Of a stretch of DNA of 16,502 bases, positions 21 to 16,502 are shown in pieces; within the stretch, counting starts at the first letter, position 1; each line of letters begins with the position of its first letter. The position numbers were made by a program, and so were the translations under genes. Origin of the DNA: a virus (lineage: Duplodnaviria; Heunggongvirae; Uroviricota; Caudoviricetes); the IMG/VR virus record IMGVR_UViG_2648501669_000019; one strand, 5' to 3'. The notes beneath the pieces are model-generated. The model did not search any database and had not been told where the DNA came from. It worked only from the letters and a program-made list of their open reading frames with translations.

Positions 21-1016
21 ATGATAGAAGAGGGGTTATGGCGTGAACGCCGTCGTAAAATTGCCCGTATATATCAACGCCGCATGCGACGACCATCTTA
101 CGGTGAACTGATCCAGATTGATGGCTCACCTCATGACTGGTTTGAAAATCGAGGCCCCAGATGTACACTGATCGTTTTCATTGATGATGCCACCAGTGCG
201 TTGATGGCGTTGCGTTTTGTGCCTGCTGAAACAACCCGGGCTTACATGGAAACCCTCCGGGGTTACCTTAATGATCATGGCGTACCGCTCGCTCTCTACT
301 CTGATAGACACAGTATATTCAGGGTAAATAACCCAGAGCGGGAAGGTGAGCTGACCCAGTTCACTCGTGCGATAAAGACACTGGGCATCGAGCCAATCCA
401 TGCCAACAGCCCGCAGGCAAAAGGGCGGGTAGAGCGCGCCAATCAGACACTACAGGACAGGCTGGTCAAAGAAATGCGGCTTCAGAATATCAGTGATATT
501 GAAACAGCAAATGCATGGTTGCCGACCTTTATTGAAGCCTATAACAACCGGTTCGCTACGTCGCCTCGTACTACTGATAATGCTCATCTTGATGTGCACC
601 ATTCTGAAGAGGAACTGGGTTATATCTTCAGCCTACAGGCGAAGCGCGTTCTGTCTAAAAATCTCACTTTCCAGTACAAAAGCAGTGCGTTTCAGGTACG
701 CAGTGAGGGCCGGGGATATCGACTTAGGCATTCGGTTGTTACTGTATGCGAGAACTTTGACGGTGAAATTAACGTTCTGTATGACGGGAAAGCGCTGGGC
801 TGGGAAAAGTATGTTGATGGCCCGGAGCCTATACCACTGGATGATGAAAAGAGTGTCCATGAACGAGTGGATAATGCCCGTATTGATTTACGCTCAAAAT
901 ACTATGTTAAACCTAAAGCTGACCATCCCTGGCTTACGCGCCGAACGCAAAGTCATCAGCAAGTTAAGCCCCCGAAGTTACCTAAAAAGAAGCCTGATCC
1001 CGATAAAAAAGATTGA
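21..1016 (+). CDS. DDE transposase / integrase-core (rve-type) protein, 331 aa, lacking an N-terminal DNA-binding domain; likely an IS-derived fragment
   Basis: Translation carries a D..D..E catalytic layout: 'QIDGSPHDW', 'LYSDRHSIF', 'NSPQAKGRVERANQTL'. In-frame stop at 9-11 means the ORF starts inside the window at ATG 21, leaving only about 30 aa before the first catalytic Asp. Family not assigned. Confidence 0.55.
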   Translation: MIEEGLWRERRRKIARIYQRRMRRPSYGELIQIDGSPHDWFENRGPRCTLIVFIDDATSALMALRFVPAETTRAYMETLRGYLNDHGVPLALYSDRHSIFRVNNPEREGELTQFTRAIKTLGIEPIHANSPQAKGRVERANQTLQDRLVKEMRLQNISDIETANAWLPTFIEAYNNRFATSPRTTDNAHLDVHHSEEELGYIFSLQAKRVLSKNLTFQYKSSAFQVRSEGRGYRLRHSVVTVCENFDGEINVLYDGKALGWEKYVDGPEPIPLDDEKSVHERVDNARIDLRSKYYVKPKADHPWLTRRTQSHQQVKPPKLPKKKPDPDKKD

Positions 1017-1070
1017 AACCAAGATCGATTCGGTTGAGTGCATATCCATTCATAGGGTAGATTCTTAAGT

Positions 1071-1136
1071 CGCGTTTCTGGTGTTCATTTTCGGGTGGTT
1101 TGTTACTTGTTTTACCGGGGATATGCCAGAAACGCG
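1071..1136. repeat. Perfect 11-bp inverted repeat (cgcgtttctgg at 1071-1081, ccagaaacgcg at 1126-1136) with a 44-bp spacer
   Basis: Seen directly in the sequence, 55 bp downstream of the transposase stop. Function unknown; could be an IS terminal structure or a hairpin. Confidence 0.5.
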
Positions 1137-1419
1137 CTGAGTCAGTCTGGGCGGTGCGCGTAATGAGGCGTTATGGTAAATAGCCTATGCTAATGTCCGC
1201 TAAGAGCAAGAAGCGGAAGTTGGCAGTTTTGTGGACTGTCCCCACAAAAGTGACTACAGAAATAGTTGCAATTCATAATTGATCATGGGTTGTCAGTTAA
1301 ACTCGTGGCGATTTAAATAGACTAATTGGGAGTGCGTCCATTACTTATATCTTGTAATGTTAACTATCAGAAATGATACAAAGATAATATGTCTTTAAAG
1401 AAAAGGCTGATGGCGAAAA

Positions 1420-1438
1420 GTGGCCCGATGAGGGCCAC
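1420..1438 (-). terminator. Candidate hairpin terminator downstream of flxA
   Basis: gtggccc-gatga-gggccac stem-loop 15 nt after the flxA stop; on the minus strand it is followed by an imperfect T-rich tract (tttcgcc...ttttcttt). Confidence 0.3.
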
Positions 1439-1452
1439 AATACGGCTGTCAC

Positions 1453-1785
1453 TTAGACGTAAATATCAATGGTGCCAGCGGTATTTGTATCGTCTTTTTT
1501 CTCTTCTTTTTTATCAGGCTGAACTGTCGCGTCTTCATTCTTTTTCTCTGCCTGCTGCCTTAACAACTGCTCCAGTTGAGCCCAGAGGCTTTCAATTTGC
1601 TTCTGTACCAATGCAGCCATTTCTTTTTTCTGCTGTGTCGTCATCCCCTCTTCCGATGAGATTTTCCCAAGCTTTTCAGTCAGCACCTGAATTTGTCTTG
1701 TGATTTTGGCTATTTCTGATGTTCCTTCCGGGGCGGAGTTGTTTGAAATAACGGTTGAGGTATTTCCCTGAATTGTGACAGACAT
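1453..1785 (-). CDS. flxA: FlxA, FliA-dependent protein (110 aa)
   Basis: 110-aa translation (MSVTIQGNTSTVISNNSAPEG...) matches FlxA as I remember it; a sigma-28 consensus promoter lies immediately upstream. Confidence 0.8.
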   Translation of the reverse strand: MSVTIQGNTSTVISNNSAPEGTSEIAKITRQIQVLTEKLGKISSEEGMTTQQKKEMAALVQKQIESLWAQLEQLLRQQAEKKNEDATVQPDKKEEKKDDTNTAGTIDIYV

Positions 1786-1808
1786 AGATTTCTCCTTTTA
1801 AAAAAGCA

Positions 1809-1835
1809 CTATCGGCATGCACAAAAAAATCTTTA
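1809..1835 (-). promoter_or_regulatory. Sigma-28 (FliA) promoter for flxA
   Basis: Minus strand reads TAAAGATT - 11 nt - GCCGATAG, against the consensus TAAAGTTT-N11-GCCGATAA, about 25 nt upstream of the flxA start. Confidence 0.7.
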
Positions 1836-1987
1836 ATCGTATTTCTTGTGTCATTAATTGTTTGATGTTCAGATTGTTTTCCTCGCGGGCTGGCGCGCCT
1901 CAGAAAGTAAAGCTTGTTGACAGGGGTAAACGTTCGGCAATAATTTTCTGCCGCATGCGGGTGTTGCATAAAACGTGTTACGTTCCT

Positions 1988-2293
1988 TTATCGACAGGTC
2001 AGGTCACCGCTCACCCGCCGACGAGAAAGCAACACTGACATGCTAAAGCAAAAAATAGATGAATAAGTTGAGTTGTGCATATGTAGCCTGACCGTCACAA
2101 AGTATATGGTGTCTGTACCAGTAAGATGATGGCCGGACTCTTTAAAAACGAGCTGACCTGCACAATACAGGATGGACTTAGCAATGGCTGCTCCTGGCAC
2201 AAAGCGGACAGTGATCACCGTTCTTACGACTACTTTCTGACTTCCTTCGTGACTTGCCCTAAGCATGTTGTAGTGCGATACTTGTAATGACAT
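1988..2293 (-). CDS. ydfV: Hypothetical 101-aa ORF in the position and size of ydfV; coding status doubtful
   Basis: Only size and position between flxA and relB support it. Low-complexity translation; its 5' end abuts the relB promoter/operator. Confidence 0.3.
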   Translation of the reverse strand: MSLQVSHYNMLRASHEGSQKVVVRTVITVRFVPGAAIAKSILYCAGQLVFKESGHHLTGTDTIYFVTVRLHMHNSTYSSIFCFSMSVLLSRRRVSGDLTCR

Positions 2294-2306
2294 TTGTAAT
2301 TACAAG
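2254..2306 (+). promoter_or_regulatory. relBE promoter and operator
   Basis: -35 TTGCCC (2254-2259), 17-bp spacer, -10 GATACT (2277-2282), followed by TTGTAAT repeats including the perfect palindrome ttgtaattacaa (2294-2305) just upstream of the relB start. Confidence 0.7.
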
Positions 2307-2317
2307 AGGTGTAAGAC

Positions 2318-2557
2318 ATGGGTAGCATTAACCTGCGTATTGACGATGAACTTAAAGCGCGTTCTTACGCCGCGCTTGAAAAAATGGGTGTAACTCCTTC
2401 TGAAGCGCTTCGTCTCATGCTCGAGTATATCGCTGACAATGAACGCTTGCCGTTCAAACAGACACTCCTGAGTGATGAAGATGCTGAACTTGTGGAGATA
2501 GTGAAAGAACGGCTTCGTAATCCTAAGCCAGTACGTGTGACGCTGGATGAACTCTGA
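2318..2557 (+). CDS. relB: RelB antitoxin (type II TA, ribbon-helix-helix), 79 aa
   Basis: Translation MGSINLRIDDELKARSYAALEKMGVTPSEALRL... matches RelB; its stop overlaps the relE start (TGATG). Confidence 0.95.
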   Translation: MGSINLRIDDELKARSYAALEKMGVTPSEALRLMLEYIADNERLPFKQTLLSDEDAELVEIVKERLRNPKPVRVTLDEL

Positions 2558-2844
2558 TGGCGTATTTTCTGGATTTTGACGAGCGGGCACTAAAGGAATG
2601 GCGAAAGCTGGGCTCGACGGTACGTGAACAGTTGAAAAAGAAGCTGGTTGAAGTACTTGAGTCACCCCGGATTGAAGCAAACAAGCTCCGTGGTATGCCT
2701 GATTGTTACAAGATTAAGCTCCGGTCTTCAGGCTATCGCCTTGTATACCAGGTTATAGACGAGAAAGTTGTCGTTTTCGTGATTTCTGTTGGGAAAAGAG
2801 AACGCTCGGAAGTATATAGCGAGGCGGTCAAACGCATTCTCTGA
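2557..2844 (+). CDS. relE: RelE toxin (ribosome-dependent mRNA endonuclease), 95 aa
   Basis: Translation MAYFLDFDERALKEWRKLGSTVREQLKKKL... matches RelE; translationally coupled to relB. Confidence 0.95.
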   Translation: MAYFLDFDERALKEWRKLGSTVREQLKKKLVEVLESPRIEANKLRGMPDCYKIKLRSSGYRLVYQVIDEKVVVFVISVGKRERSEVYSEAVKRIL

Positions 2845-2915
2845 ACCAAAGCATGACATCTCTGTTTCGCACCGAAGGTGACACTTCTGCTTTGCGTTGA
2901 CAGGAGAAGCAGGCT

Positions 2916-3071
2916 ATGAAGCAGCAAAAGGCGATGTTAATCGCCCTGATCGTCATCTGTTTAACCGTCATAGTGACGGCACTGGTAACGAGGAAAGACC
3001 TCTGCGAGGTACGAATCCGAACCGGCCAGACGGAGGTCGCTGTCTTCACAGCTTACGAACCTGAGGAGTAA
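2916..3071 (+). CDS. hokD: HokD (RelF), Hok-family membrane toxin, 51 aa
   Basis: ATG at 2916 gives MKQQKAMLIALIVICLTVIVTALVTRKDLCEVRIRTGQTEVAVFTAYEPEE, a Hok-family peptide with a single TM helix. Below the 60-aa cutoff of the ORF track. Confidence 0.9.
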   Translation: MKQQKAMLIALIVICLTVIVTALVTRKDLCEVRIRTGQTEVAVFTAYEPEE

Positions 3072-3140
3072 GAGACCCGGCGGGGGAGAAATCCCTCGCC
3101 ACCTCTGATGTGGCAGGCATCCTCAACGCACCCGCACTTA

Positions 3141-3166
3141 ACCCGCTTCGGCGGGTTTTTGTTTTT
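3141..3166 (+). terminator. Rho-independent terminator of the relB-relE-hokD operon
   Basis: acccgc-ttcg-gcgggt stem-loop followed by tttttgttttt. Confidence 0.6.
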
Positions 3167-3287
3167 ATTTTCAACGCGTTTGAAGTTCTGGACGGTGCCG
3201 GAATAGAATCAAAAATACTTAAGTAGCGCGCAGGGATAAGAGGGATGGTCCCTTAAAGGGGAGAGCTAATTATCCGGAAGGATTCTG

Positions 3288-3539
3288 ATGATGAACATCG
3301 AAGAACTGCGTAAAATTTTTTGTGAAGATGGCCTCTATGCTGTGTGCGTTGAAAATGGAAATCTTGTTAGTCATTACCGCATTATGTGTTTGCGAAAGAA
3401 TGGGGCTGCGTTAATTAATTTTGTGGATGCTCGGGTCACGGACGGATTTATCTTGCGCGAAGGTGAGTTTGTCACTTCATTACAGGCATTGAAAGAGATC
3501 GGAATAAAAGCTGGCTTTTCTGCTTTTTCAGGAGAATAA
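3288..3539 (+). CDS. rem: Rem, small prophage protein of unknown function (83 aa)
   Basis: 83-aa translation MMNIEELRKIFCEDGLYAVCVENGN... ; GGAAGG Shine-Dalgarno upstream. Confidence 0.8.
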   Translation: MMNIEELRKIFCEDGLYAVCVENGNLVSHYRIMCLRKNGAALINFVDARVTDGFILREGEFVTSLQALKEIGIKAGFSAFSGE

Positions 3540-3605
3540 ACTCATCTACAATCTTGCGCGGGGCTGAACTCCCGCTGAGTAACACCGTGCCACCGGAGAA
3601 AACCG

Positions 3606-3884
3606 ATGGCACGCAACGCAAAATATTACAATTCTGATAATTCGCCCGTTCTTGCCTGCACGCACGGGCGGTATTCTCACGCATTCAAGTCTGAATGGTT
3701 CCAGCACCCTCCATGCACTGCAGAACAGGCCGAATGGCTGATTCATTCTTACCGCAGGCGCGGGTTCGAGGTTAAGAAAGCTCTCAGTCTCGACTATCGG
3801 CACTGGATAATCTCTGTCAGGCTGCCTTATTCCGAACGCCCACCACGTGCGTCCCGCACTTTCCAGCAACGGATCTGGAGGTAA
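3606..3884 (+). CDS. Hypothetical 92-aa prophage protein, translationally coupled to ydfU
   Basis: ORF with a GGAG Shine-Dalgarno about 10 nt upstream; its stop (3882-3884) lies inside the ydfU ribosome-binding site. No family assigned. Confidence 0.45.
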   Translation: MARNAKYYNSDNSPVLACTHGRYSHAFKSEWFQHPPCTAEQAEWLIHSYRRRGFEVKKALSLDYRHWIISVRLPYSERPPRASRTFQQRIWR

Positions 3885-3885
3885 C

Positions 3886-4935
3886 GTGCGGGTATTACTT
3901 AGACCTGTTCTGGTGCCTGAGCTTGGGCTGGTGGTCCTTAAGCCGGGCCGTGAATCCATACAGATATTTCATAATCCTCGAGTGCTGGTGGAACCGGAAC
4001 CAAAAAGCATGCGTAATCTGCCATCCGGAGTCGTTCCTGCCGTTCGCCAGCCGCTGGCGGAAGACAAAACATTGCTGCCGTTTTTTAGTAACGAACGGGT
4101 GATTCGTGCTGCTGGCGGCGTTGGCGCATTGTCCGACTGGCTATTACGTCATGTTACATCCTGCCAGTGGCCTAATGGCGATTACCATCACACTGAAACA
4201 GTCATTCACCGTTATGGTACCGGCGCAATGGTGTTGTGCTGGCACTGCGACAACCAACTGCGTGACCAGACATCGGAATCACTGGAGCTGCTTGCTCAAC
4301 AAAATCTGACAGCATGGGTGATTGACGTCATCCGTCACGCAATAAGCGGTACGCAGGAGCGGGAATTATCTTTGGCTGAATTATCCTGGTGGGCGGTCTG
4401 CAATCAGGTGGTGGATGCACTACCTGAGGCTGTATCGCGTCGTTCGCTGGGATTACCAGCGGAAAAAATCTGCTCGGTGTACCGCGAAAGCGACATCGTA
4501 CCGGGAGAGCAGACCGCCACCAGCATATTGAAACAACGCACAAAAAATCTTGCACCGTTGCCTTACGCCCACCAGCAACAAAAATCACCACAGGAAAAGA
4601 CGGTGGTAAGCATCACCGTTGATCCAGAGTCTCCGGAATCTTTCATGAAGCTGCCTAAACGTCGCCGCTGGGTTAAGGAGAAATACACACGTTGGGTTAA
4701 GACACAGCCGTGTGCTTGCTGCGGTATGCCAGCCGACGATCCGCATCATCTGATTGGTCACGGGCAGGGCGGAATGGGAACAAAAGCACATGATCTCTTT
4801 GTGTTGCCTTTGTGCAGAAAGCATCACAACGAGCTGCATACGGATACAGTGGCATTTGAAGATAAGTATGGCTCCCAACTGGAGCTGATATTTCGTTTTA
4901 TCGATCGCGCGCTGGCAATTGGCGTACTGGCGTAA
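3886..4935 (+). CDS. ydfU: YdfU, DUF968-type protein with a C-terminal HNH-like zinc-binding nuclease motif (349 aa from GTG 3886; alternative GTG at 3847)
   Basis: GGAGGT Shine-Dalgarno 4 nt upstream of GTG 3886. C-terminus carries CACCGMPADDPHHLIGH...LCRKHHNELH (CxxC / HH / CxxHH arrangement typical of HNH nucleases). Confidence 0.75.
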   Translation: MRVLLRPVLVPELGLVVLKPGRESIQIFHNPRVLVEPEPKSMRNLPSGVVPAVRQPLAEDKTLLPFFSNERVIRAAGGVGALSDWLLRHVTSCQWPNGDYHHTETVIHRYGTGAMVLCWHCDNQLRDQTSESLELLAQQNLTAWVIDVIRHAISGTQERELSLAELSWWAVCNQVVDALPEAVSRRSLGLPAEKICSVYRESDIVPGEQTATSILKQRTKNLAPLPYAHQQQKSPQEKTVVSITVDPESPESFMKLPKRRRWVKEKYTRWVKTQPCACCGMPADDPHHLIGHGQGGMGTKAHDLFVLPLCRKHHNELHTDTVAFEDKYGSQLELIFRFIDRALAIGVLA

Positions 4936-4948
4936 GTGGAGAACGAGC

Positions 4949-5701
4949 ATGAACCTTGAAGCCTTACCAAAATATTACTCCCCAAAATCTCCAAAATTGA
5001 GCGATGACGCTCCAGCGACAGGCACCGGTTGTTTAACAATTACGGATGTAATGGCAGCGCAGGGGATGGTGCAGTCGAAAGCACCACTTGGGTTGGCCTT
5101 ATTTCTGGCAAAAGTTGGTGTTCAGGACCCTCAGTTTGCGATTGAAGGCCTGCTAAATTACGCGATGGCACTGGATAACCCGACATTGAACAAATTGAGT
5201 GAAGAAATCCGGTTACAGATTATTCCTTACCTCGTGAGTTTTGCCTTTGCTGATTACTCCAGGTCTGCGGCAAGTAAGGCTCGCTGTGAGCATTGTTCAG
5301 GTACGGGATTTTATAATGTATTGCGCGAAGTGGTGAAACACTACAGACGCGGGGAATCTGTAATCAAGGAAGAATGGGTGAAGGAACTATGTCAGCATTG
5401 CCATGGTAAGGGCGAAGCCAGCACAGCGTGCAGAGGGTGTAAGGGTAAAGGGATTGTTCTGGATGAAAAAAGAACCCGGTTTCATGGCGTACCGGTATAT
5501 AAGATTTGTGGGCGTTGTAATGGAAACCGGTTTAGTCGTTTACCGACCACGCTGGCACGACGTCATGTCCAGAAGCTGGTACCAGACCTGACCGATTATC
5601 AGTGGTATAAGGGGTATGCGGACGTCATTGGTAAACTGGTAACAAAGTGCTGGCAGGAAGAAGCATACGCGGAAGCGCAATTGAGGAAGGTGACGAGATA
5701 A
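4949..5701 (+). CDS. quuQ: Q-type late-gene antiterminator (250 aa)
   Basis: ATG at 4949 preceded by GGAG; Cys-rich zinc-binding motifs (CEHCSGTG, CQHCHGKG, CRGCKGKG, CGRCNG) typical of lambdoid Q proteins; followed by a promoter and short terminator as in lambda. Confidence 0.8.
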   Translation: MNLEALPKYYSPKSPKLSDDAPATGTGCLTITDVMAAQGMVQSKAPLGLALFLAKVGVQDPQFAIEGLLNYAMALDNPTLNKLSEEIRLQIIPYLVSFAFADYSRSAASKARCEHCSGTGFYNVLREVVKHYRRGESVIKEEWVKELCQHCHGKGEASTACRGCKGKGIVLDEKRTRFHGVPVYKICGRCNGNRFSRLPTTLARRHVQKLVPDLTDYQWYKGYADVIGKLVTKCWQEEAYAEAQLRKVTR

Positions 5702-5732
5702 ATGATTTTTGCTGAAGATGGCGACATGATGT

Positions 5733-5761
5733 TTGCATTTTTCAAAAAATATGGATAAAAT
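5733..5761 (+). promoter_or_regulatory. Candidate Q-dependent late promoter (pR'-like)
   Basis: -35 TTGCAT (5733-5738), exact 17-bp spacer, -10 TAAAAT (5756-5761), about 30 bp after the quuQ stop; a hairpin terminator lies about 45 nt downstream. Confidence 0.5.
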
Positions 5762-5808
5762 TTTTTCAACGATGGGCTTTGTATACCCGACGTTAAGAAA
5801 AAGTAGAA

Positions 5809-5832
5809 AACCCGCTGATGAGCGGGTTTTGT
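5809..5832 (+). terminator. Rho-independent terminator (tR'-like); possibly bidirectional
   Basis: aacccgct-gatg-agcgggtt stem-loop followed by ttgtgcttt; the minus-strand side is also followed by a T-rich stretch. Confidence 0.55.
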
Positions 5833-6122
5833 GCTTTAAATGGGGCAATGGTAATGTTGAATCTCATCCCGGGACTCATGTCTGTTAACTTATTATTTAG
5901 CTGGTGACTTGGTTATTTGCCTGATGTTTAAAATGTTTTCTTCCAGTACAATGTCCCTAAACACAATGAGTCTGCTTATTATATTATTAGCAGAGCTATT
6001 ACGGCCAAAGTACAGCATAAGCTTTTAAAGCCAATCAACCAGTCATCAAGACAGACGGGGTTATTCATAAAAACTCTCCATGTGTGATCCGATGGGGCCT
6101 GAAATTAAAGCTTTAATATAGC

Positions 6123-6335
6123 TCATGAAAGGTAAACATTGGCAGCTGAAGGGCCACGCAGACCATTTATCCGGCAAAATTCCACGCGTAATCCGGTGGT
6201 AATTTCTTCTGCATCGCGGAGATTGAGCGCTGAAACATGAAGCTGGACATCGATACGACCATCGGATGGGGTGATAAGACCCTTGCCGCTTTTGCCGTCA
6301 AAGGTTTTGACAATTCCTGTCATTTTACGGGACAA
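6123..6335 (-). CDS. cspF: Cold-shock-protein family paralog CspF (70 aa)
   Basis: Translation [33 protein letters not shown]... ; divergent from cspB. Confidence 0.85.
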
Positions 6336-6635
6336 AAAAATTCCTTAATACTGATAACTTGGCGCACTATACACACGTTCCTGAAGAAAGCTATAGTTTT
6401 TTGATGGGGTTGAAGATGGCTGGATGTCTAAAATAAACATTGCTTCATATGTTCAACTATGCGTTAATGATTGCGTCGGTTTGAAGAACAGACGATATAC
6501 GAAGTAGTTTACTAAAGCAGTTCTCATTTCAGGTGTTATTCACTTATTCCTTCTTTGAGTCTCTCCAATTAAGTACGAAGTCGTTTCTGTTATGCAAACC
6601 ATTTATGCCGAAAGGCTCAAGTTAAGGAATGTAGA

Positions 6636-6851
6636 ATGTCAAATAAAATGACTGGTTTAGTAAAATGGTTTAACGCTGATAAAGGTTTCGGCTTTATTTC
6701 TCCTGTTGATGGTAGTAAAGATGTGTTTGTGCATTTTTCTGCGATTCAGAATGATAATTATCGAACCTTATTTGAAGGTCAAAAGGTTACCTTCTCTATA
6801 GAGAGTGGTGCTAAAGGTCCTGCAGCAGCAAATGTCATCATTACTGATTAA
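6636..6851 (+). CDS. cspB: Cold-shock protein CspB (71 aa)
   Basis: Translation [38 protein letters not shown]... ; long AT-rich 5' leader with the CspA-type box gccgaaaggc (6606-6615). Confidence 0.9.
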
Positions 6852-7133
6852 AATTCATCGCTCGTCTGTATACGATAACGAAGAAGGCTGATGCCTGAGT
6901 AGAGATACGGACAGAGTAGTGAATATTGGATCTCTTTAATAAAAAGTAAGGAGGTCCAATACATGAAACAATGGCTAGCATATTTGGCAAAATCTTAATC
7001 AGGAAAAGTATGCTAACCATTGTGGTGAAGTGCAGGTTTGCTGCATGAATAGTTTTACAGCAGAAGCTAACTGCTGGCATGGCAAAACAAAGTGCGTAAG
7101 TGGATGACTCCCACAAAAAGCACCACAATCTCA

Positions 7134-7157
7134 AACCCGCTCAGGCGGGTTTTTTAT
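7134..7157 (+). terminator. Rho-independent terminator after cspB
   Basis: aacccgc-tcag-gcgggtt stem-loop followed by ttttttatt. Confidence 0.6.
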
Positions 7158-7214
7158 TATCTGCTTTAAATATATTATTAAAATATAAAAAATACTTGTT
7201 ACTAATAAAATCAA

Positions 7215-7385
7215 TCAGGCTACAGCTTTAAGATTTGTCTGGAATACTTTGTTGCAATGAGGGCAGATCAAAAGGGCACCTTTTTGTACTCTTGAAAAAC
7301 TGTGTTCTGACTCTTGGGTGCAGTTTGGGCAGGAACATTTAACGAGATAATTACGGCGTGATTTTGAGTTTTTACGTTCTGACAT
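7215..7385 (-). CDS. Small zinc-ribbon protein (56 aa from the internal ATG at 7385; the ORF track starts it at 7436)
   Basis: Two Cys pairs (CSCPNC ... CPHCNK) about 20 residues apart; an AGGA Shine-Dalgarno precedes the 7385 start and none precedes the 7436 start. Confidence 0.45.
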   Translation of the reverse strand: MSERKNSKSRRNYLVKCSCPNCTQESEHSFSRVQKGALLICPHCNKVFQTNLKAVA

Positions 7386-7604
7386 AGGCTTTTCCTGTAT
7401 AAATGGCCGTATACAGTACACTAAATATGAAAACATTTCTCGTATTATTATTTTATATATGACTTTCTTTCAAAATAATTACCCACATTTTTAATGTGTA
7501 TGTTTTTTTAGCGCCGTTGAGAACAACGTGTGCTGTCAAAACTACCCCGTAGACTCCGATCTTTTCAAACATATTGCACCATCCGTGTACATCGGGGTGA
7601 GGAT

Positions 7605-7820
7605 ATGAAATCAATGGATAAGTTAACAACAGGTGTTGCCTATGGCACATCGGCGGGTAATGCTGGTTTCTGGGCATTGCAGTTACTCGATAAAGTAACT
7701 CCGTCACAGTGGGCTGCAATCGGTGTGCTGGGTAGCCTGGTTTTTGGCCTGCTGACGTATCTGACAAATCTTTATTTCAAGATTAAAGAAGACAGGCGTA
7801 AGGCTGCGAGAGGAGAGTAA
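7605..7820 (+). CDS. essQ: Class II holin (phage 21 S-like pinholin), 71 aa, with a dual-start motif
   Basis: [28 protein letters not shown]...[13 protein letters not shown] resembles the phage 21 S holin; Met1-Lys-Ser-Met4 suggests antiholin/holin dual starts. The ORF track's upstream start at 7530 is probably spurious. Confidence 0.85.
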
Positions 7821-7824
7821 TCCA

Positions 7825-8132
7825 ATGACTCAAGACTATGAACTGGTTGTGAAAGGAGTCCGTAATTTTGAGAATAAAGTTACGGTAACTGTAGCCTTAC
7901 AGGACAAAGAACGCTTTGACGGTGAAATTTTTGACCTGGATGTCGCCATGGACCGTGTTGAAGGAGCTGCGCTGGAGTTTTATGAGGCAGCAGCCAGAAG
8001 GAGCGTCCGGCAAGTCTTCCTGGAAGTAGCAGAAAAATTGTCAGAAAAAGTTGAGTCTTATCTGCAGCATCAGTACTCCTTTAAGATTGAAAATCCTGCC
8101 AATAAGCACGAGCGTCCTCATCATAAATATCT

Positions 8133-8136
<4 letters not shown>
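7825..8136 (+). CDS. ydfR: YdfR (DUF1327), 103 aa, sitting between holin and endolysin
   Basis: 103-aa ORF placed 5 bp after the holin stop and overlapping the endolysin start. Confidence 0.75.
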
Positions 8137-9160
<1,024 letters not shown>

Positions 9161-9522
9161 GGTAATATTAAATCGGAACATTTACATCGCGGAATGTAAA
9201 ATTTAAATAAAAAGGACTCTTCCATGAGCCAAAATTCCTGAAATCTTAAGGGTAAGATAAAAGGTCTTAATCAGAATGACACGTTTTATTAATAAATAAA
9301 GCCATTCTTTCATTGCTGTGTTTTTCTTTACAAAAGTAATCCTTGCTATGGGTGGTTAATCATGCGTTAATGGTGTTCTGGTTTGTTACAAATTTATCTG
9401 AAGCAGTCATTGTTATAATTTTATTATTTGTACCTCTTGAGATTTCCTTGTTGGTTTTTCTCTCTGATATTTTTTTTCGGACCATTCTGCCCAAGGGCTA
9501 ATTTCTTCAAAAGGTAATAATT

Positions 9523-9735
9523 ATGTCTAACAAAATGACTGGTTTAGTGAAATGGTTTAACCCTGAAAAAGGTTTTGGTTTCATCACGCCGAAAGATGGC
9601 AGCAAAGATGTGTTTGTCCATTTCTCAGCAATTCAGAGCAACGATTTCAAAACATTAACTGAGAATCAGGAAGTTGAATTTGGTATTGAGAACGGACCTA
9701 AAGGTCCTGCCGCTGTTCATGTAGTGGCGCTTTGA
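9523..9735 (+). CDS. cspI: Cold-shock protein CspI (70 aa)
   Basis: Translation [38 protein letters not shown]... ; upstream leader shares the motif catgcgttaatg with the cspB leader. Confidence 0.9.
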
Positions 9736-9763
9736 GGTAGACAATATTACAAACCATATTCAC

Positions 9764-9934
9764 TTTAGATGCCCGTGTTGTCATGGTTCCCAGTATAGAA
9801 CATCATCTTTTGATGTTTCTGACATGAATCCTTTCGGGGCAAAATGTATCTTTTGTAAATCAATGATGATTACATTTGATAATATTTCACAATACTTAAA
9901 TGCCAGCCGTCTGTCGTTGGATTTAAAAAAGTGA
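9764..9934 (+). pseudogene. Zinc-ribbon ORF remnant with no canonical start codon upstream of its first Cys pair
   Basis: Frame open from 9725 to the TGA at 9932-9934 encodes ...HFRCPCCHGSQYRTSSFDVSDMNPFGAKCIFCKSMMITF... ; the only in-frame ATG (9824) lies after the first CxCC pair and no GTG/TTG precedes it. Confidence 0.35.
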
Positions 9935-9940
9935 AAATGA

Positions 9941-9963
9941 AGGCTCCTTCGGGAGCTTTTTTG
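9941..9963 (+). terminator. Rho-independent terminator
   Basis: aggctcc-ttcg-ggagctt stem-loop followed by ttttgc. Confidence 0.5.
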
Positions 9964-10006
9964 CTTGGTGTCTATTCGATGGATACTCACATACTACGGT
10001 AACATC

Positions 10007-10237
10007 ATGAAAAAAATCATAGTTTTTTTTAACTCTGAACCAGCAGTGGTAGTGCCAGCGATGACTGGAGTTAACACCATCATGCGTGAATATCCAAATG
10101 GCGAAAAAACACACCTTACTGTAATGGCCGCAGGGTTTCCATCTCTGACCGGAGATCATAAAGTCATTTATGTAGCCGCGGATCGACATGTTACTTCAGA
10201 AGAAATTCTGGAAGCAGCAATAAGGCTCTTGAGTTGA
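10007..10237 (+). CDS. Hypothetical small protein (76 aa from ATG 10007)
   Basis: ORF MKKIIVFFNSEPAVVVPAMTGVNTIM... between cspI and gnsB; weak ribosome-binding site; identity not recognised. Confidence 0.35.
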   Translation: MKKIIVFFNSEPAVVVPAMTGVNTIMREYPNGEKTHLTVMAAGFPSLTGDHKVIYVAADRHVTSEEILEAAIRLLS

Positions 10238-10408
10238 TTTGATGCTATTGCATTGATAATTCAGGAAAATTCTCTTTGTCTGTTTGTGTAAAATTTAGAC
10301 TATCGTATGTTGATTATTGCGATGTTTCATCTTATCTTTTACACGTTTGCACCATATAATCGACTTACTGTGTAACTGGAAAGTCATAACAGACTAAAAG
10401 AGGAAATG

Positions 10409-10582
10409 ATGAATATTGAAAACTTAAAAACAAAAGCAGAAGCAGATATTTCTGAATATATAACAAAAAAAATTATTGAACTTAAGAAAAAGACCGGGAA
10501 AGAAGTTACCAGTATTCAGTTTACCGCACGGGAAAAAATGACGGGTCTTGAAAGCTATGATGTCAAGATTAATTTAATCTGA
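10409..10582 (+). CDS. gnsB: GnsB (Gns family small protein, 57 aa)
   Basis: Translation MNIENLKTKAEADISEYITKKIIELKKKTGKEVTSIQFTAREKMTGLESYDVKINLI; AGGAAA Shine-Dalgarno upstream. Below the ORF-track cutoff. Confidence 0.85.
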   Translation: MNIENLKTKAEADISEYITKKIIELKKKTGKEVTSIQFTAREKMTGLESYDVKINLI

Positions 10583-10609
10583 TGTATTCAATAATAAAAT
10601 TTATCCATA

Positions 10610-10634
10610 AACCTCGTTTTTACGGGGTTTTGTT
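10610..10634 (+). terminator. Rho-independent terminator after gnsB
   Basis: aacctcg-ttttta-cggggtt stem (one G-U pair) followed by tttgtt. Confidence 0.5.
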
Positions 10635-10733
10635 ATATTTGAATGGTTCCGAATATCTAAATCACAATTGTTGATGGTTTTTATTAAACCAATGCAGTCC
10701 GGCTCAGGAGTGAGAGAAGCCGGACGTTATGGT

Positions 10734-11144
10734 TTAGCGTGGTAAGATCTGTGTAGTTTTCTGGATGCTTTCAGTAAATAGTAATGAATTATCAAAGGTA
10801 TAGTAATATCTTTTTTGTTCGTGGATATTTGTAACCCACCGAAAAACTCCTGCTTTAGCAAGGTTTCTTCTGTATTCCTGAAATGTGATCTCTCTGGATT
10901 TCAGCTTATTAGAGGTCGTTTCTATAAGATGCCTATCCTTTGAAAATTTGACAGACACAATGTTTTTTAGGCCCTTTAATAACACTGTATTATCATTTTT
11001 TAATACAATATGAACATTCTCTGTGGCTAAATAATAAATGTAATGTGAGACATTGTGACGTTTTAGCTCAGAATAAAACCATTGATAGTTTAAATCGTTT
11101 CGAACTTTATCAAATATTTGTTTAAAAATGACTACCTGATCCAT
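10734..11144 (-). CDS. ydfO: YdfO (DUF1398), 136 aa from the ATG at 11144 (ORF track start 11159)
   Basis: GGAAGG Shine-Dalgarno precedes the [13 protein letters not shown] start; lies 57 nt downstream of ynfO on the same strand. Confidence 0.8.
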
Positions 11145-11201
11145 AGATAAACCTTCCATGTGATATGAGGGGGCGTAGTCTGCACGATTATCTAAATTGC
11201 T

Positions 11202-11435
11202 TCAATCTGGTCTGACCTGTTTTCTGAGCAATTCAGTAATGTCACTCTTTTCTTTGTTTGCTTCAGAAGAAACTCTTTTTTCTGAGCACAGTCTCCGGCG
11301 GCAGGCTTCAATGACCCAGGCTGAGAAATTCCCGGACCCTTTTTGCTCAAGAGCGATGTTAATTTGTTCAATCATTTGGTTAGGAAAGCGGATGTTGCGG
11401 GTTGTTGTTCTGCGGGTTCTGTTCTTCGTTGACAT
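11202..11435 (-). CDS. ynfO: YnfO, small basic protein with a ribbon-helix-helix-like N-terminal region (77 aa)
   Basis: Translation MSTKNRTRRTTTRNIRFPNQMIEQINIALEQKGSGNFSAWVIEACRRRL... ; Arg-rich N-terminus and a beta-strand/helix pattern reminiscent of CopG/Arc-type DNA binders. Confidence 0.65.
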   Translation of the reverse strand: MSTKNRTRRTTTRNIRFPNQMIEQINIALEQKGSGNFSAWVIEACRRRLCSEKRVSSEANKEKSDITELLRKQVRPD

Positions 11436-11559
11436 GAGGTTGCCCCGTATTCAGTATCGCTGATTTGTATTGTCTGAAGTTGTTTTTACGTTAAGTTGAT
11501 GCAGATCAATTAATACGATACCTGCGTCATAATTGATTATTTGACGTGGTTTGATGGCC

Positions 11560-11820
11560 TCCACGCACGTTGTGATATGTAGATGATAATCATTATCACT
11601 TTACGGGTCCTTTCCGGTGATCCGACAGGTTACGGGGCGGCGACCTCGCGGGTTTTCGCTATTTATGAAAATTTTCCGGTTTAAGGTGTTTCCGTTCTTC
11701 TTCGTCGTAACTTAATGTTTTTATTTAAAATACCCCCTGAAAAGAAAGGAAACGACAGGTGCTGAAAGCGGGCTTTTTGGCCTTTGTCGTTTCCTTTCTC
11801 TGTTTTTGTCCGTGGAATGA
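11560..11820 (+). other. Lambda-type cos site: cosQ-like region, cosN (11635-11646, GGGCGGCGACCT) and cosB upstream of the Nu1 homolog
   Basis: Near-identical to the phage lambda genome ends as I remember them (...GATCCGACAGGTTACG | GGGCGGCGACCTCGCGGGTTTTCGCTATTTATGAAAATTTTCCGG...), continuing into the Nu1 start. Confidence 0.8.
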
Positions 11821-11823
11821 ACA

Positions 11824-12081
11824 ATGGAAGTCAACAAAAAGCAGCTGGCTGACATTTTCGGTGCGAGTATCCGTACCATTCAGAACTGGCAGGAACAGGG
11901 AATGCCCGTTCTGCGAGGCGGTGGCAAGGGTAATGAGGTGCTTTATGATTCTGCCGCCGTCATAAAATGGTATGCCGAAAGGGATGCTGAAATTGAGAAC
12001 GAAAAGCTGCGCCGGGAAGTTGAAGAACTGCGGCAGGCCAGCGAGACAGATCTCCAGCCACCCGCGCTACGGCATGGGTAA
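11824..12081 (+). pseudogene. nohQ: Truncated terminase small-subunit (Nu1) homolog: the N-terminal ~80 residues only
   Basis: MEVNKKQLADIFGASIRTIQNWQEQGMPVLRGGGKGNEVLYDSAAVIKWYAERDAEIENEKLRREVEELRQASE matches the lambda Nu1 N-terminus; homology stops near 12063 and the frame ends after a few unrelated codons. Confidence 0.8.
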
Positions 12082-13339
12082 ACGTCTTGGTGCGGCAGAT
12101 GTGGATAAATGGGCGCTGTATGTCATCGGCCAGTGTTGCGACCAGTCGGTGCCGGACGGTTTTGGCGGCACGGAGCCGCGCATCACCTGTAATGCCTGGC
12201 TGACCACACAGCGTAAGGCGTGGGATGTTCTCAGTGATTTCTGCTCGGCGATGCGCTGTATGCCGGTATGGAACGGGCAGACGCTGACGTTCGTGCAGGA
12301 CCGACCATCAGATAAGGTGTGGACCTATAACCGCAGTAATGTGGTGATGCCGGATGATGGCGCGCCGTTCCGCTACAGCTTCAGCGCCCTGAAGGACCGC
12401 CATAATGCCGTTGAGGTGAACTGGATTGACCCGGATAACGGCTGGGAGACGGCGACAGAGCTTGTGGAGGACACGCAGGCCATTGCCCGTTACGGTCGTA
12501 ACGTCACGAAGATGGATGCCTTTGGCTGTACCAGGCGGGGGCAGGCGCACCGAGCCGGGCTGTGGCTGATTAAAACGGAACTGCTGGAAACGCAGACCGT
12601 GGACTTCAGCGTGGGTGCCGAAGGGCTTCGCCATGTACCAGGTGATGTCATTGAAATCTGTGATGATGACTATGCGGGGATCAGCATCGGCGGGCGCGTG
12701 CTGGCGGTGAACAGCCAGACGCGGACACTGACGCTCGACCGTGAAATCACGCTGCCATCCTCCGGCACCACGCTGATAAGCCTGGTTGACGGGCAGGGTA
12801 ATCCGGTGAGCGTGGAGGTCCAGTCCGTCACCGACGGCGTGAAGGTGAAAGTGAGCCGGGTTCCTGACGGCGTTGCCGAGTACAGCGTGTGGGGGCTGAA
12901 GCTGCCGACGCTGCGTCAGCGCCTGTTCCGCTGTGTGAGTATCCGTGAGAACGATGACGGTACGTATGCCATCACTGCCGTGCAGCATGTACCGGAGAAA
13001 GAAGCCATCGTGGATAACGGGGCGCACTTTGACGGTGACCAGAGCGGCACGGTGAATGGTGTCACGCCGCCAGCAGTTCAGCACCTGACCGCAGAAGTCA
13101 CCGCAGACAGCGGGGAATACCAGGTGCTGGCGCGCTGGGACACGCCGAAGGTGGTGAAGGGGGTGAGCTTTATGCTTCGCCTGACCGTGGCAGCGGACGA
13201 CGGCAGTGAGCGGTTGGTCAGCACGGCCCGGACGACGGAAACCACATATCGCTTCACGCAGCTGGCGCTGGGAAATTACAGGCTGACAGTCCGGGCGGTA
13301 AATGCATGGGGACAGCCGGTGCACATACCCATTCGATGA
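12064..13339 (+). pseudogene. Internal fragment of a lambda J-like tail-tip protein (about 420 aa), fused out of frame to the Nu1 remnant
   Basis: The 455-aa ORF (11972-13339) matches the central part of lambda gpJ as I remember it (...DRPSDKVWTYNRSNVVMPDDGAPFRYSF...RAVNAWGQ). Its first ~30 codons are the Nu1 region read in another frame; it has neither the J N- nor C-terminus. Confidence 0.75.
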
Positions 13340-13614
13340 CATTTGTTTCAGGTGGTTCCAGTGGTGCTCCGGGAAGTGGATCACCTGATTATTCTAAATA
13401 CAGTGTTAACACTTCTTCTGCAGGCGCTCATACGCACTCTGTATCGGGTACTGCTGCAAGCGCAGGTGCACACGCATATACTGTCGGTATTGGTGCTCAT
13501 ACGCACTCCGTTGCGATTGGTTCACATGGACATACCATCACCGTTAACGCTGCTGGTAACGCGGAAAACACCGTCAAAAACATCGCATTTAACTATATTG
13601 TGAGGCTTGCGTAA
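13306..13614 (+). pseudogene. stfQ: C-terminal fragment of a side tail fibre (Stf) protein, joined out of frame to the J fragment
   Basis: Repeated GAHTHS / GAHAYT / GSHGHT motifs and the C-terminal ...[22 protein letters not shown] typical of lambda Stf; no N-terminal part; stop overlaps the tfaQ start. Symbol assigned by position and is uncertain. Confidence 0.65.
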
Positions 13615-14189
13615 TGGCATTCAGAATGAGTGAACAACCACGGACCATAAAAATTTATAATCTGCTGGCCGGAACTAATGAATTTATTGGTGAAGGTGAC
13701 GCATATATTCCGCCTCATACAGGTCTGCCAGCAAACAGTACCGATATTGCACCGCCAGATATTCCGGCAGGCTTCGTGGCTGTTTTCAACAGTGATGAGG
13801 CATCGTGGCATCTCGTTGAAGATCATCGGGGTAAAACGGTTTATGACGTGGCTTCCGGCGACGCGTTATTTATTTCTGAACTCGGTCCGTTACCGGAAAA
13901 TGTTACCTGGTTATCGCCGGGAGGGGAATATCAGAAGTGGAACGGCACAGCCTGGGTGAAGGATACGGAAGCAGAAAAACTGTTCCGGATCCGGGAGGCG
14001 GAAGAAACAAAAAACAGCCTGATGCAGATAGCCAGTGAGCATATAGCGCCGCTTCAGGATGCTGTGGATCTGGAGATCGCAACGGAGGAAGAAACCTTGT
14101 TGCTGGAAGCCTGGAAAAAGTATCGGGTGTTGCTGAACCGTGTTGATACATCAACTGCACCGGATATTGAATGGCCAGCACTGCCGTAG
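13614..14189 (+). CDS. tfaQ: Tail fibre assembly protein (191 aa)
   Basis: Translation [39 protein letters not shown]... ; start overlaps the stf fragment stop (TAATG). Confidence 0.85.
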
Positions 14190-14286
14190 GGTAAAACATA
14201 TAAATTCTATAATTAGATGTATCTCTCCATTTACGGCAAGGAAGGGGGCTTGGAAGACGTAAAGCATCTCACACCGAGATTATTTT

Positions 14287-14877
14287 TTATATGTCAGGTG
14301 TCTGAAGTTTTGCTTTGGCTCTTAAAATGGTTTGCCGCGAGGTTTTGAATTCCCGGGCAATGGCACTTATACTTACACCTGACTTAATTCGTTCGAATAC
14401 CACCTGTTTCTGTTCTTCATTTAACACAGGTGGTCGACCAAAACGTTTCCCTGCGCCGCGGGCTCTTACTATCCCGGAATGAGTGCGTTCAAGTAAAAGG
14501 TCTCGTTCAAATTCAGCGACTGCTGAAATTACGTGCATCATCATTTTTCCTGTTGGACTGGTCAGGTCAATGCCCCCCAATGCTAAGCAATGCACTCTGA
14601 TACCTGTTTCGGTCAGTTGTTCCACTGTTTTCCTGATATCCATTGCATTACAACCAAGGCGATCCAGTTTTGTCACAATCAATTGATCACCACATTTCAG
14701 GCGAGCAAGCAACCGGTTAAAACCAGGACGCTCACTGGTTGCTGCTGAGCCGCTAATGTGTTCTTCGATTATTTGCTGAGGTTTGATTTTAAAACCTGCA
14801 CTTTCGATTTCCCGGCGTTGATTTTCGGTGGTCTGATCCAGCGTTGATATCCGACAGTAAGCAAAAATTCGAGACAT
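14287..14877 (-). CDS. pinQ: Serine recombinase / DNA invertase of the Gin-Cin-Pin-Hin family (196 aa)
   Basis: N-terminal catalytic motif YCRISTLDQ and C-terminal helix-turn-helix; convergent with tfaQ. Confidence 0.9.
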
Positions 14878-15193
14878 AGTGAGACTCTATACGAAATTGG
14901 TGTTCATATCATAATGCATCTCAGAAAATAATTTTGATTATTTTTGTGCATATTTGTATGTACACGTTCGAAAATAAACGAATGCGTATGCAACCCCGTA
15001 ACTTTGGTGAGACCCAAAATCGATTTTGTGAAAAATGGCTTTAACTCGGTTTGTTTTTCGAGTTCCGGGCGGACTCAAGGAAGAAGAATAGTGTTGCGTG
15101 TTATTTTAACCAGATTTCAAGTTGTTTGGTCGTGGAAAAGTGGAGCAAAATGTTGTTAAAGTGGAAAAATGATAAAAAAGTAAGTTTATTATA

Positions 15194-15427
15194 TTACATT
15201 TTACCATTTAAATTTTGGTTGTCTTTAAGAACTGATATCGCTGTTTGTAATAATTCTTTGTTATCCAGCCATGATTTTTTCTTTATGTTTCCTTCAATGT
15301 AATCAAGCAATGTTCTGGTATTGATAGGTCTTCCCTGTTTTGCTACTTCCACTACAGCATCCCCTAGGATAATTCTGACTTCAGGAAGCTGCGCAGGGAA
15401 CCACTTTAGGGTGTCTTTTGATTTCAT
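15194..15427 (-). CDS. ydfK: YdfK-type small cold-shock-induced protein (77 aa from ATG 15427; ORF track start 15460)
   Basis: AAGGAA Shine-Dalgarno precedes the MKSKDTLKWFPAQLPEVRIILGD start; position next to pinQ. Confidence 0.7.
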   Translation of the reverse strand: MKSKDTLKWFPAQLPEVRIILGDAVVEVAKQGRPINTRTLLDYIEGNIKKKSWLDNKELLQTAISVLKDNQNLNGKM

Positions 15428-16167
15428 GAATATATTCCTTAAAATATTATTGATTTTCATTGCGATATTGTATGTCTGATTCAGGATATGTTGACTTATA
15501 CATCGGTTTTGTCTGGGTTATTGGATATGCCAATCCCTAATTTTATTAGAGCATGACTAAAAATGCTGAATATGATAAGGAGCGAAGTGATTATCAGTAT
15601 GCTGTTCATATAGCCTCGAATTAGTAATGTGTTATATATGATATAGTTGACAATTTTTATCCTGGGTGTTCTTAAAGTTCGTAGATAAACATTGTCGTTT
15701 CAGGTATACAGGAATGCTAACAGATGGCGGCAAAAATCAGGCGGTTTATGGCGCAAGCTGAAGTGGCAACTGCAAACTATCTTATGCAGAGACTCTACAC
15801 GGATTGGGTTTAAAAGTATACATAGATAACAGTTTTTATCTGAAGAAGAAAAATATCAAGGTGATATAGCCTATATGCCTTTGATGTGGAGGAATGAATG
15901 TGATGGGAGTGATGTATCTGAATAGTTGAAAAACCGCAGACACGCCTTATGCAAGAACGTGCTGCGGTTGGCTGGTAAATTTTTCGATAGTGCGAGTATT
16001 GAATGATTTCCAGCCGTTATTGATTTTACGCGTAACTCCATGAAAAAACTACTTATCTGTTGAGGAGTTTTTTTGGGGCATATATGGGACAGAAATGGGC
16101 CCCAGATAGACACTGAGATCGAACTTAGGATGCTTTTTAAAAAATGCAACTATCTGAAAAAACCTAG

Positions 16168-16502
<335 letters not shown>

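Follow-up and report, generated by a model that had tools for sequence, protein, structure and literature searches.

The window, by which we mean the whole 16,502-nt stretch of DNA analyzed here, is the late-region end of the Escherichia coli Qin cryptic lambdoid prophage. At positions 11560-13614 it very probably carries the scar of two deletions, in which three out-of-frame pseudogene fragments, derived from the small terminase gene Nu1, the tail-tip gene J and the side tail fibre gene stf, lie behind a lambda-type cos site that is intact in sequence. The stretch is a gutted Qin late region that has undergone ordinary passive prophage decay, and is a kind of feature that is already known. 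The initial annotation had already read it as a deletion scar. That reading holds, since the Qin prophage of strain ATCC 8739 contains, at the same locus, everything that is missing here. An ancestor like the ATCC 8739 Qin, possessing cos, Nu1, A, the head and tail genes, J, lom, stf, tfa and pin, would have lost its late region through two illegitimate, microhomology-mediated deletions of about 15.9 kb and about 4.8 kb. We infer the order and number of these events, the mechanism of recombination and the lack of function of the fragments. The features of the region are collected in Table 1.

Table 1. Features of the Qin late-region remnant and its immediate downstream context (window coordinates).
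Feature	Position	Strand	Basis
Lambda right-end homologue (lambda 48141-48502), including cosQ and the left half of cosN	11273..11634	+	Alignment, 98%
cosQ heptamer GGGTCCT	11605-11611	+	Identical to lambda
12-nt cohesive end GGGCGGCGACCT, cosN core (lambda bases 1-12)	11635..11646	+	Identical to lambda
cosB-type region with three R-box cores	11680..11805	+	Alignment with lambda
R3-like core (cosB)	about 11685-11700		Read from sequence
R2-like core, inverted (cosB)	about 11743-11758		Read from sequence
R1-like core (cosB)	about 11784-11799		Read from sequence
Truncated small terminase (nohA/nohQ, Nu1 homologue)	11824..12081	+	Pfam, PDB matches, PGAP
Junction 1, microhomology CCA	12058..12060	.	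Nu1 (…CTCCAGCCA/GGGACT) vs J (…CTGACCCA/CCCGCGC)
Internal fragment of tail-tip gene J, frame 2	12061..13312	+	Lambda/ATCC 8739 alignments, Pfam, PGAP
Junction 2, microhomology CAGC	13313..13316	.	J vs stf parental sequences
End of side tail fibre gene (stfQ-type, GAHTHS repeats), codons 908-1007, frame 1	13317..13614	+	
tfaQ, intact tail fibre assembly gene (downstream context, outside the scar)	13614..14189	+	Caudo_TAP E 2.4e-43, PGAP
pinQ serine invertase, 196-aa ORF (downstream context)	14287..14877	-	ORF list, PGAP

A Qin prophage and its undeleted relative

About half of sequenced strains carry Qin, whose size varies from 11 to 97 kb (PMC6379469). The assignment of the window to this prophage follows from near-identity and synteny with the Qin of K-12 MG1655 (ydfW ... 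essQ-ydfR-rrrQ-rzpQ ... nohA, tfaQ, pinQ, ydfK). Window positions 832-12060 (11.2 kb), which run from ydfW to Nu1 codon 79, share 99.87% identity with K-12 Qin, and positions 13423-16167 match MG1655 at 97.9%. In strain PK6, which carries an identical allele, the PGAP annotation gives the order ydfW, flxA, ydfV, relBE, hokD, rem, ydfU, ydfT, cspF, cspB, essD, ydfR, rrrQ, rzpQ, cspI, ynfN, gnsB, ydfO, ynfO, three partial pseudogenes, tfaQ, pinQ, ydfK, ynfT and a truncated ydfJ. Genomes with the same allele have the prophage at the Qin insertion point, between rspB and the 5'-truncated ydfJ; the window itself is ended before ydfJ by an IS5-family element at 16168. PGAP identifies the three partial pseudogenes, in genomes with identical sequence, as a terminase small subunit with its C-terminus missing, a TipJ family tail tip protein with both N- and C-terminus missing, and a tail fiber protein with its N-terminus missing. 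PinQ, encoded downstream of the scar, has been described previously (PMC12529663).

The structure of the scar is best seen by comparison with ATCC 8739 (NZ_CP033020, 2.286-2.310 Mb), whose Qin prophage lies at the same ydfJ locus and has the whole A-to-stf region, in the order nohA, A, W, B, C, D, E, FI, FII, Z, U, V, G, T, H, M, L, K, I, J, lom, stf (1007 codons), tfaQ, pinQ and ydfK, with only Z frameshifted. The two prophages share their insertion site, and their early and lysis genes are 99.6% identical, but ATCC 8739 retains nohA, A through J, lom and the 1007-aa stf, and with them both parental sequences of each junction. Its alignment with the window falls into three collinear blocks, with identities of 99.6% as far as 12060, 92.8% across the J piece and 98.6% from 13313 onward; the window is likewise collinear with lambda 1-427, 16347-17608 and 21824-22538. 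Identities of 92-100% over hundreds of bases exclude chance similarity. Relative to ATCC 8739, 15,918 bp are missing at the first junction, from Nu1 codon 80 through J codon 281, and approximately 4,836 bp at the second, from J codon 702 through stf codon 907. The missing DNA therefore amounts to 20.7 kb, not to one or two bases. The first of these gaps fits the proposal that the lambda span from A through I, roughly 15 kb, had been lost between Nu1 and J.

ATCC 8739 is nonetheless not the literal ancestor of the window allele in the J segment. The J piece diverges from ATCC 8739 J by 7%, against 0.4-1.4% for the flanking blocks, and Qin copies are therefore mosaic in J. Either the ancestral Qin in this lineage would have borne another J allele (the J piece is 98.4% identical to J of phage mEp460), or J would have been exchanged by recombination.

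The junctions and the retained fragments

The sequence upstream of the first junction tracks lambda, K-12 and ATCC 8739 as far as Nu1 codon 79, and all three homologies end at 12060. The resulting 85-aa ORF consists of Nu1 codons 1-79 followed by six foreign codons and a stop. It matches the Pfam family Phage_Nu1 over profile positions 1-81 of 164 (E 1.4e-48), and its residues 1-68 match PDB 1J9I (E 5e-41), so that the entire winged helix-turn-helix DNA-binding domain is retained. A further structure, 6HN7_B, is matched across query residues 1-83. The central oligomerisation part and the C-terminal part that binds TerL (gpA) are absent from this ORF, which departs from Nu1 after codon 79 of 181.

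Homology to J begins at 12058 (lambda 16347) and so overlaps the end of the Nu1 homology by 3 bp, CCA. The J fragment corresponds to approximately codons 282-701 of a gene of 1132 codons in lambda or 1159 in ATCC 8739. Across 12058-13319 it is 92.6% identical to lambda 16347-17608. Its Pfam matches are to Phage-tail_3 and Ig_J (PF13550, PF24421), and it lacks both the N-terminal part of the protein and the C-terminal receptor-binding part.

At the second junction the J frame reads ...AWGQ and then PVHIPIR before a stop codon. The microhomology extends to 6 of 7 bases if the parental sequences CAGCAGG (J) and CAGCCGG (stf) are compared. The Stf frame can be read directly as GAHTHS... from 13306, where an ATG forms the start of the mechanically called ORF for the stf piece. 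This piece comprises the last 100 codons of the 1007-codon gene, contains a Phage_fiber repeat by Pfam, and from 13313 matches the 3' end of complete stf genes in many genomes at 100% identity. With Nu1 in frame 1, J in frame 2 and Stf in frame 1, both junctions are out of frame. The overlaps CCA and CAGC are the signature of illegitimate, microhomology-mediated joining.

These results agree closely with what had been proposed from the letters of the sequence. The switch from Nu1 to the middle of a J-like gene in another frame had been placed at about 12063 and falls at 12058-12060, thus within 3 bp; the out-of-frame passage from J (...AWGQ) to the Stf C-terminus (GAHTHS...) had been placed at about 13315 and falls at 13313-13316. 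Alignment to lambda, which had been suggested as the way to fix the breakpoints and to look for microhomology, places both of them on a collinear path, and each has short microhomology between its parental sequences.

We searched 80-bp probes across each junction in 5,426 complete E. coli genomes. The first junction is present in 26 of these and the second in 91, and so neither is a sequencing error. A megablast search with 11560-13614 in the same set of 5,426 genomes found all 2,055 bases unchanged in about two dozen independent complete chromosomes, whose strains came from different hosts and countries. That the junctions might be assembly or sequencing artefacts, or simple frameshifts, has a negligible probability given this recurrence in independent genomes and the 20.7 kb of missing DNA; nothing spoke in its favour, and we reject it. 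Collinearity with an undeleted relative at the same locus, microhomology at each junction and recurrence in independent assemblies all point instead to large deletions.

The cos site and its potential for packaging

The retention of a lambda-like cos site, also noted in the initial annotation, is evident from the alignment of window 11273-12060 with lambda 48141-48502 plus 1-427, in which 774 of 789 positions are identical (98%) with one 1-bp gap. Positions 11560-11649 are identical both to lambda and to K-12 Qin. Both the cosQ heptamer and the 12-nt cohesive-end sequence of cosN, the hallmarks of a lambda-type cos, are present and unchanged from lambda; we placed cosQ by lambda coordinates 48473-48479, which we take to be its position. 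The cosB region is 98% identical to lambda, from which it differs at five positions (C>T at 11687, A>G at 11707, T>C at 11736, a 1-bp deletion at approximately 11771 and C>T at 11785); one of these changes borders R3. By direct reading, all three R-box cores, GTTTCC(G/T)TTCT, are intact. The exact limits of the cosB subsites in Table 1 are those we presume from lambda, and the architecture and subsite names (the TerS sites R3, R2 and R1, and the IHF site I1) follow the published description (PMC4669245).

The same stretch had been described as belonging to an element that cannot build a virion. In PK6, which carries this allele, the annotation of Qin contains neither head nor tail genes, so that a virion cannot be built. 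It had further been proposed that a helper phage with a matching terminase could still package this DNA, and this proposal is only half supported. In lambda-like phages packaging can begin with cosN and cosB alone, but to terminate it needs cosQ and cosN at a downstream site (PMC4669245). The signals for initiation are present in the sequence, making initiation plausible. No second cosN occurs within 64.9 kb downstream of the Qin cos in PK6, so that normal cos-to-cos packaging cannot finish, and we discard a second downstream cos as a means of completing it in this strain. A matching helper of lambda specificity could probably nick the cos and begin translocating toward tfaQ, pinQ and ydfJ without completing a normal particle, and a regular transducing particle would not be expected from a single chromosomal cos.

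Two known systems provide points of reference. Passive tandem prophages resemble the Qin remnant in that a helper terminase starts at a chromosomal cos in situ, as in packaging by a lambda helper, and the terminase can package the chromosomal DNA lying between the two cos sites of the tandem (PMC4669245). They differ in having that second cos one genome length downstream, whereas PK6 Qin has none within 65 kb. The cos-type phage-inducible chromosomal islands (PICIs), such as EcCICFT073, are also chromosomal, lack capsid genes and have a cos that is usable by a helper terminase (PMC9026076, PMC6739421). However, PICIs excise, replicate to concatemers and redirect the helper TerS with Rpp, whereas the Qin remnant has lambda's own cosB and a single chromosomal cos, and in PK6 is without the replication and immunity region. 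This region, from dicB and dicA through replication and immunity, has been deleted in PK6 by an exo::DUF977 fusion, although int and xis are annotated as intact, and its loss means that no concatemers are formed. The PK6 element is accordingly no PICI-like satellite, having neither replication to concatemers nor a second cos at packageable spacing, and there are no Rpp or capsid-remodelling genes among its PGAP gene names.

Most likely the fragments do nothing and are decaying pseudogenes. One could instead imagine that selection keeps the remnant, either because helper phages could begin packaging the adjacent chromosome from it or because the 85-aa Nu1 domain would act as a cosB decoy against lambda-type phages. 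The lambda-identical cosQ and cosN and the intact R-box cores would suit the first role, as would the finding that helper terminase packages chromosomal cos sites in situ if another cos lies beyond them (PMC4669245), and the complete winged helix-turn-helix domain, which resembles the isolated fragment of crystal structure PDB 1J9I, would suit the second. Yet the absence of a second cos within 65 kb and of concatemers in PK6 tells against such a role, and neither state is conserved among Qin alleles: strain 300709 has lost cos to an IS66-family element and other alleles retain full-length Nu1. We consider selection for the remnant very improbable. A literature search on nohA/stfQ and on packaging from the Qin cos returned nothing specific. 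The practical interest of the site is for lambda packaging genetics, as strains with this allele carry a chromosomal cos whose cosQ and cosN are identical to those of lambda and which can recombine with test phages.

Other alleles and the history of the deletions

Passive decay by two deletions can be set in order by comparison with Qin alleles that have been reduced to different extents. Strain 300709 retains Nu1, the 3' portion of A, W, fragments of B, C, G, T and H, and J codons 55-702. In BS74R-D, a full-length nohA runs into the final 300 bp of the window's J piece. Both strains have junction 2 in common with the window and are 99.9% identical to it from J onward, while their upstream deletions differ. 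Because junction 2 is common to Qin alleles with other upstream structures, the J::stf event is the older, and the Nu1::J junction would be younger and specific to a lineage.

The allele of FDAARGOS_1337 suggests a possible refinement of this history. Its Qin is the same as the window on both sides of the first junction (1 mismatch in 1,283 bp) and has junction 2, but contains 477 extra bp, in which Nu1 continues to ATCC 8739 position 18899 and is there joined to J from position 34331. The extra segment thus carries an older junction, between about codon 170 of Nu1 and codon 211 of J, and it is flanked by the same CCA microhomology. This intermediate-looking allele means that the two deletions may be three: junction 1 might be a 477-bp secondary deletion inside an older Nu1::J fusion, whose original junction would have been erased to leave the same end product. 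The identical flanks, the shared junction 2 and the flanking CCA all fit such a route, and small deletions are commoner than large ones. Against it, a junction of the FDAARGOS_1337 type is found at 100% identity in 1 of the 5,426 genomes, and the intermediate would therefore be rarer than its supposed descendant, which is found in 26. The other 65 matches to this junction have identities of only 97.5-98.8%; the one of these that we examined, in REL606, lies in the DLP12 prophage, and the B-lineage matches near 0.55 Mb appear to be at the same locus. An independent deletion from an ancestor with only junction 2 would moreover yield an identical sequence. The three-deletion route is thus a credible alternative, but one that we regard as somewhat less probable than direct formation of junction 1.

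The DLP12 prophage of E. coli B (REL606/BL21) is itself instructive. Like the window, it is a defective lambdoid prophage whose cos and Nu1 run directly into the interior of J, but it occupies another locus, its junction joins about codon 170 of Nu1 to codon 211 of J, its J runs on to the natural end of the gene, and it is 94-96% identical to the window. The identical Nu1::J junction thus occurs at two loci, in FDAARGOS_1337 Qin and in E. coli B DLP12, at 97% identity, and such scars either move between prophages or recur. We considered whether the J fragment, and possibly the junctions with it, could have entered the window allele through homologous recombination or gene conversion with a second defective lambdoid prophage, for instance DLP12. 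Both the doubly located junction and the lower identity of the J piece to ATCC 8739 Qin (92.8%, against 98.6-99.6% for the flanks) are in keeping with import. On the other hand, J in the window is 99.9% identical to J of the Qin allele in 300709, which retains more of J and other late genes, and just 94.5% identical to J of REL606 DLP12. Import is on balance unlikely, and whatever the donor, the fusion points would remain deletion junctions. Transfer of the Nu1::J junction from a B-type DLP12 into Qin likewise finds no support, as the 477 bp of FDAARGOS_1337 match 300709 at 100% and 99.8% and DLP12 at 97%.

K-12 MG1655 provides a further outcome of decay at the same locus. Its Qin is the same prophage with the same cos, has tfaQ, pinQ and ydfK downstream, and is also without all head and tail genes. 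In K-12, however, a single 21.1-kb deletion has joined lambda position 719, at the Nu1 end, to stf codon 707, forming the nohA (b1548)-stfQ (b1547) scar, in which a 189-aa NohA and a 320-aa StfQ remain without any J fragment. Since the K-12 and window alleles each retain DNA that is absent from the other, neither can be derived from the other by deletion, ruling out descent in either direction; the K-12 deletion would be independent of the two in the window. The closest analogues of the scar are this nohA-stfQ scar and the Nu1::J fusion in E. coli B DLP12.

In itself the scar adds an allele to a textbook cryptic prophage, and its three pseudogenes are already picked up by annotation pipelines. 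The wider value lies in the series formed by ATCC 8739, 300709, BS74R-D, FDAARGOS_1337, K-12 and the window, across which the Qin morphogenesis genes have been lost several times independently by microhomology deletions while the early, lysis, cold-shock and toxin-antitoxin cargo has been retained throughout.

A separate observation concerns the boundary between Nu1 and A. The left breakpoints of five alleles from two prophage loci (Qin and DLP12) fall within 5 bp of each other, in GAACTGA/TA/CC, and a probe for the Nu1/A boundary gave truncated matches that, in all five sampled, end at probe positions 58-66. On the right, this sequence is joined to A, to L, to J (at two positions) or to a tail-fibre gene. 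Pin-type site-specific recombination, considered through a by-eye comparison of the breakpoint with what we take to be the gix/hix half-sites, was rejected because the crossover points are spread over 5 bp and the sequences joined on the right are unrelated to one another. The breakpoint spot lies 8-16 bp upstream of the start codon of the terminase large-subunit gene A and 6-10 nt 3' of a Chi-like octamer, GCTGGATG, and the clustering suggests that a directed break or a stop to resection, rather than random deletion, may set the left end.

The J fragment and the packaging site in different Qin alleles

The internal J fragment of the scar (window 12058-13319) is 98.4% identical to the J gene of phage mEp460. 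Against the J gene of the complete Qin prophage in ATCC 8739 (L005 34543-35804) its identity falls to 92.8%, whereas the Qin DNA flanking the fragment matches ATCC 8739 at 98.6-99.6% identity. The J gene is thus mosaic among Qin copies.

Strain 300709 has a related Qin allele (L007 1-965) that is similar to the window only from window position 11771 rightward; directly to the left of this point are IS66-family genes. This allele has thus lost cosQ, cosN and part of cosB, and not every Qin remnant retains cos.

Further deletions in Qin and DLP12

Outside the window, one deletion breakpoint recurs in Qin and DLP12: in all of five distinct fusions, which join Nu1 to A, to L, to J (two positions) or to a tail fibre gene, the break lies within GAACTGA/TA/CC. 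A Chi-like GCTGGATG lies 6-10 nt to the 5' side of the breakpoint and the start codon of the terminase large-subunit gene is 8-16 bp downstream of it. One and the same Nu1::J junction is found at two chromosomal loci, with 97% sequence identity.

The Qin prophage of PK6, a strain with the same allele as the window, has a third large deletion (L013), in which a partial exonuclease gene is joined to a partial DUF977 gene and through which the dicB/dicA/dicC/replication region has been lost. Left of the window-equivalent part, int and xis are apparently intact (L013, PK6 2337312-2341174).

Insertion elements and cold-shock paralogues

The IS5-family element at the right end of the window is inserted at a CTAG target (16164-16167) and is absent from the corresponding site in K-12, PK6 and ATCC 8739. 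At the left end, bases 1-19 match no reference Qin copy, and the adjacent ISNCY-family transposase gene is missing from K-12 Qin. The window lacks the ISKox3 insertion of PK6, and the 8 bp flanking that insertion are present once (window 15492-15499).

Positions of insertion elements, cold-shock genes and the recurrent breakpoint
Feature	Location	Remark
ISNCY-family transposase	window 21-1016	3'-truncated
cspB	window 6636-6826	
cspI	window 9523-9713	
IS5-family element	window 16168-16502	terminal part (GGAAGGTGCGAATAAG…)
ISKox3 (ISL3-family) insertion	PK6, L001 17008-18228	between ydfK and ynfT
Recurrent breakpoint	ATCC 8739 Qin, L005 18895-18903	lambda about 695-703; equivalent positions in L006, L007, L010, L011, L014, L015

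The cold-shock paralogues cspB and cspI both lie within the prophage, and are 73% identical to each other at the DNA level.
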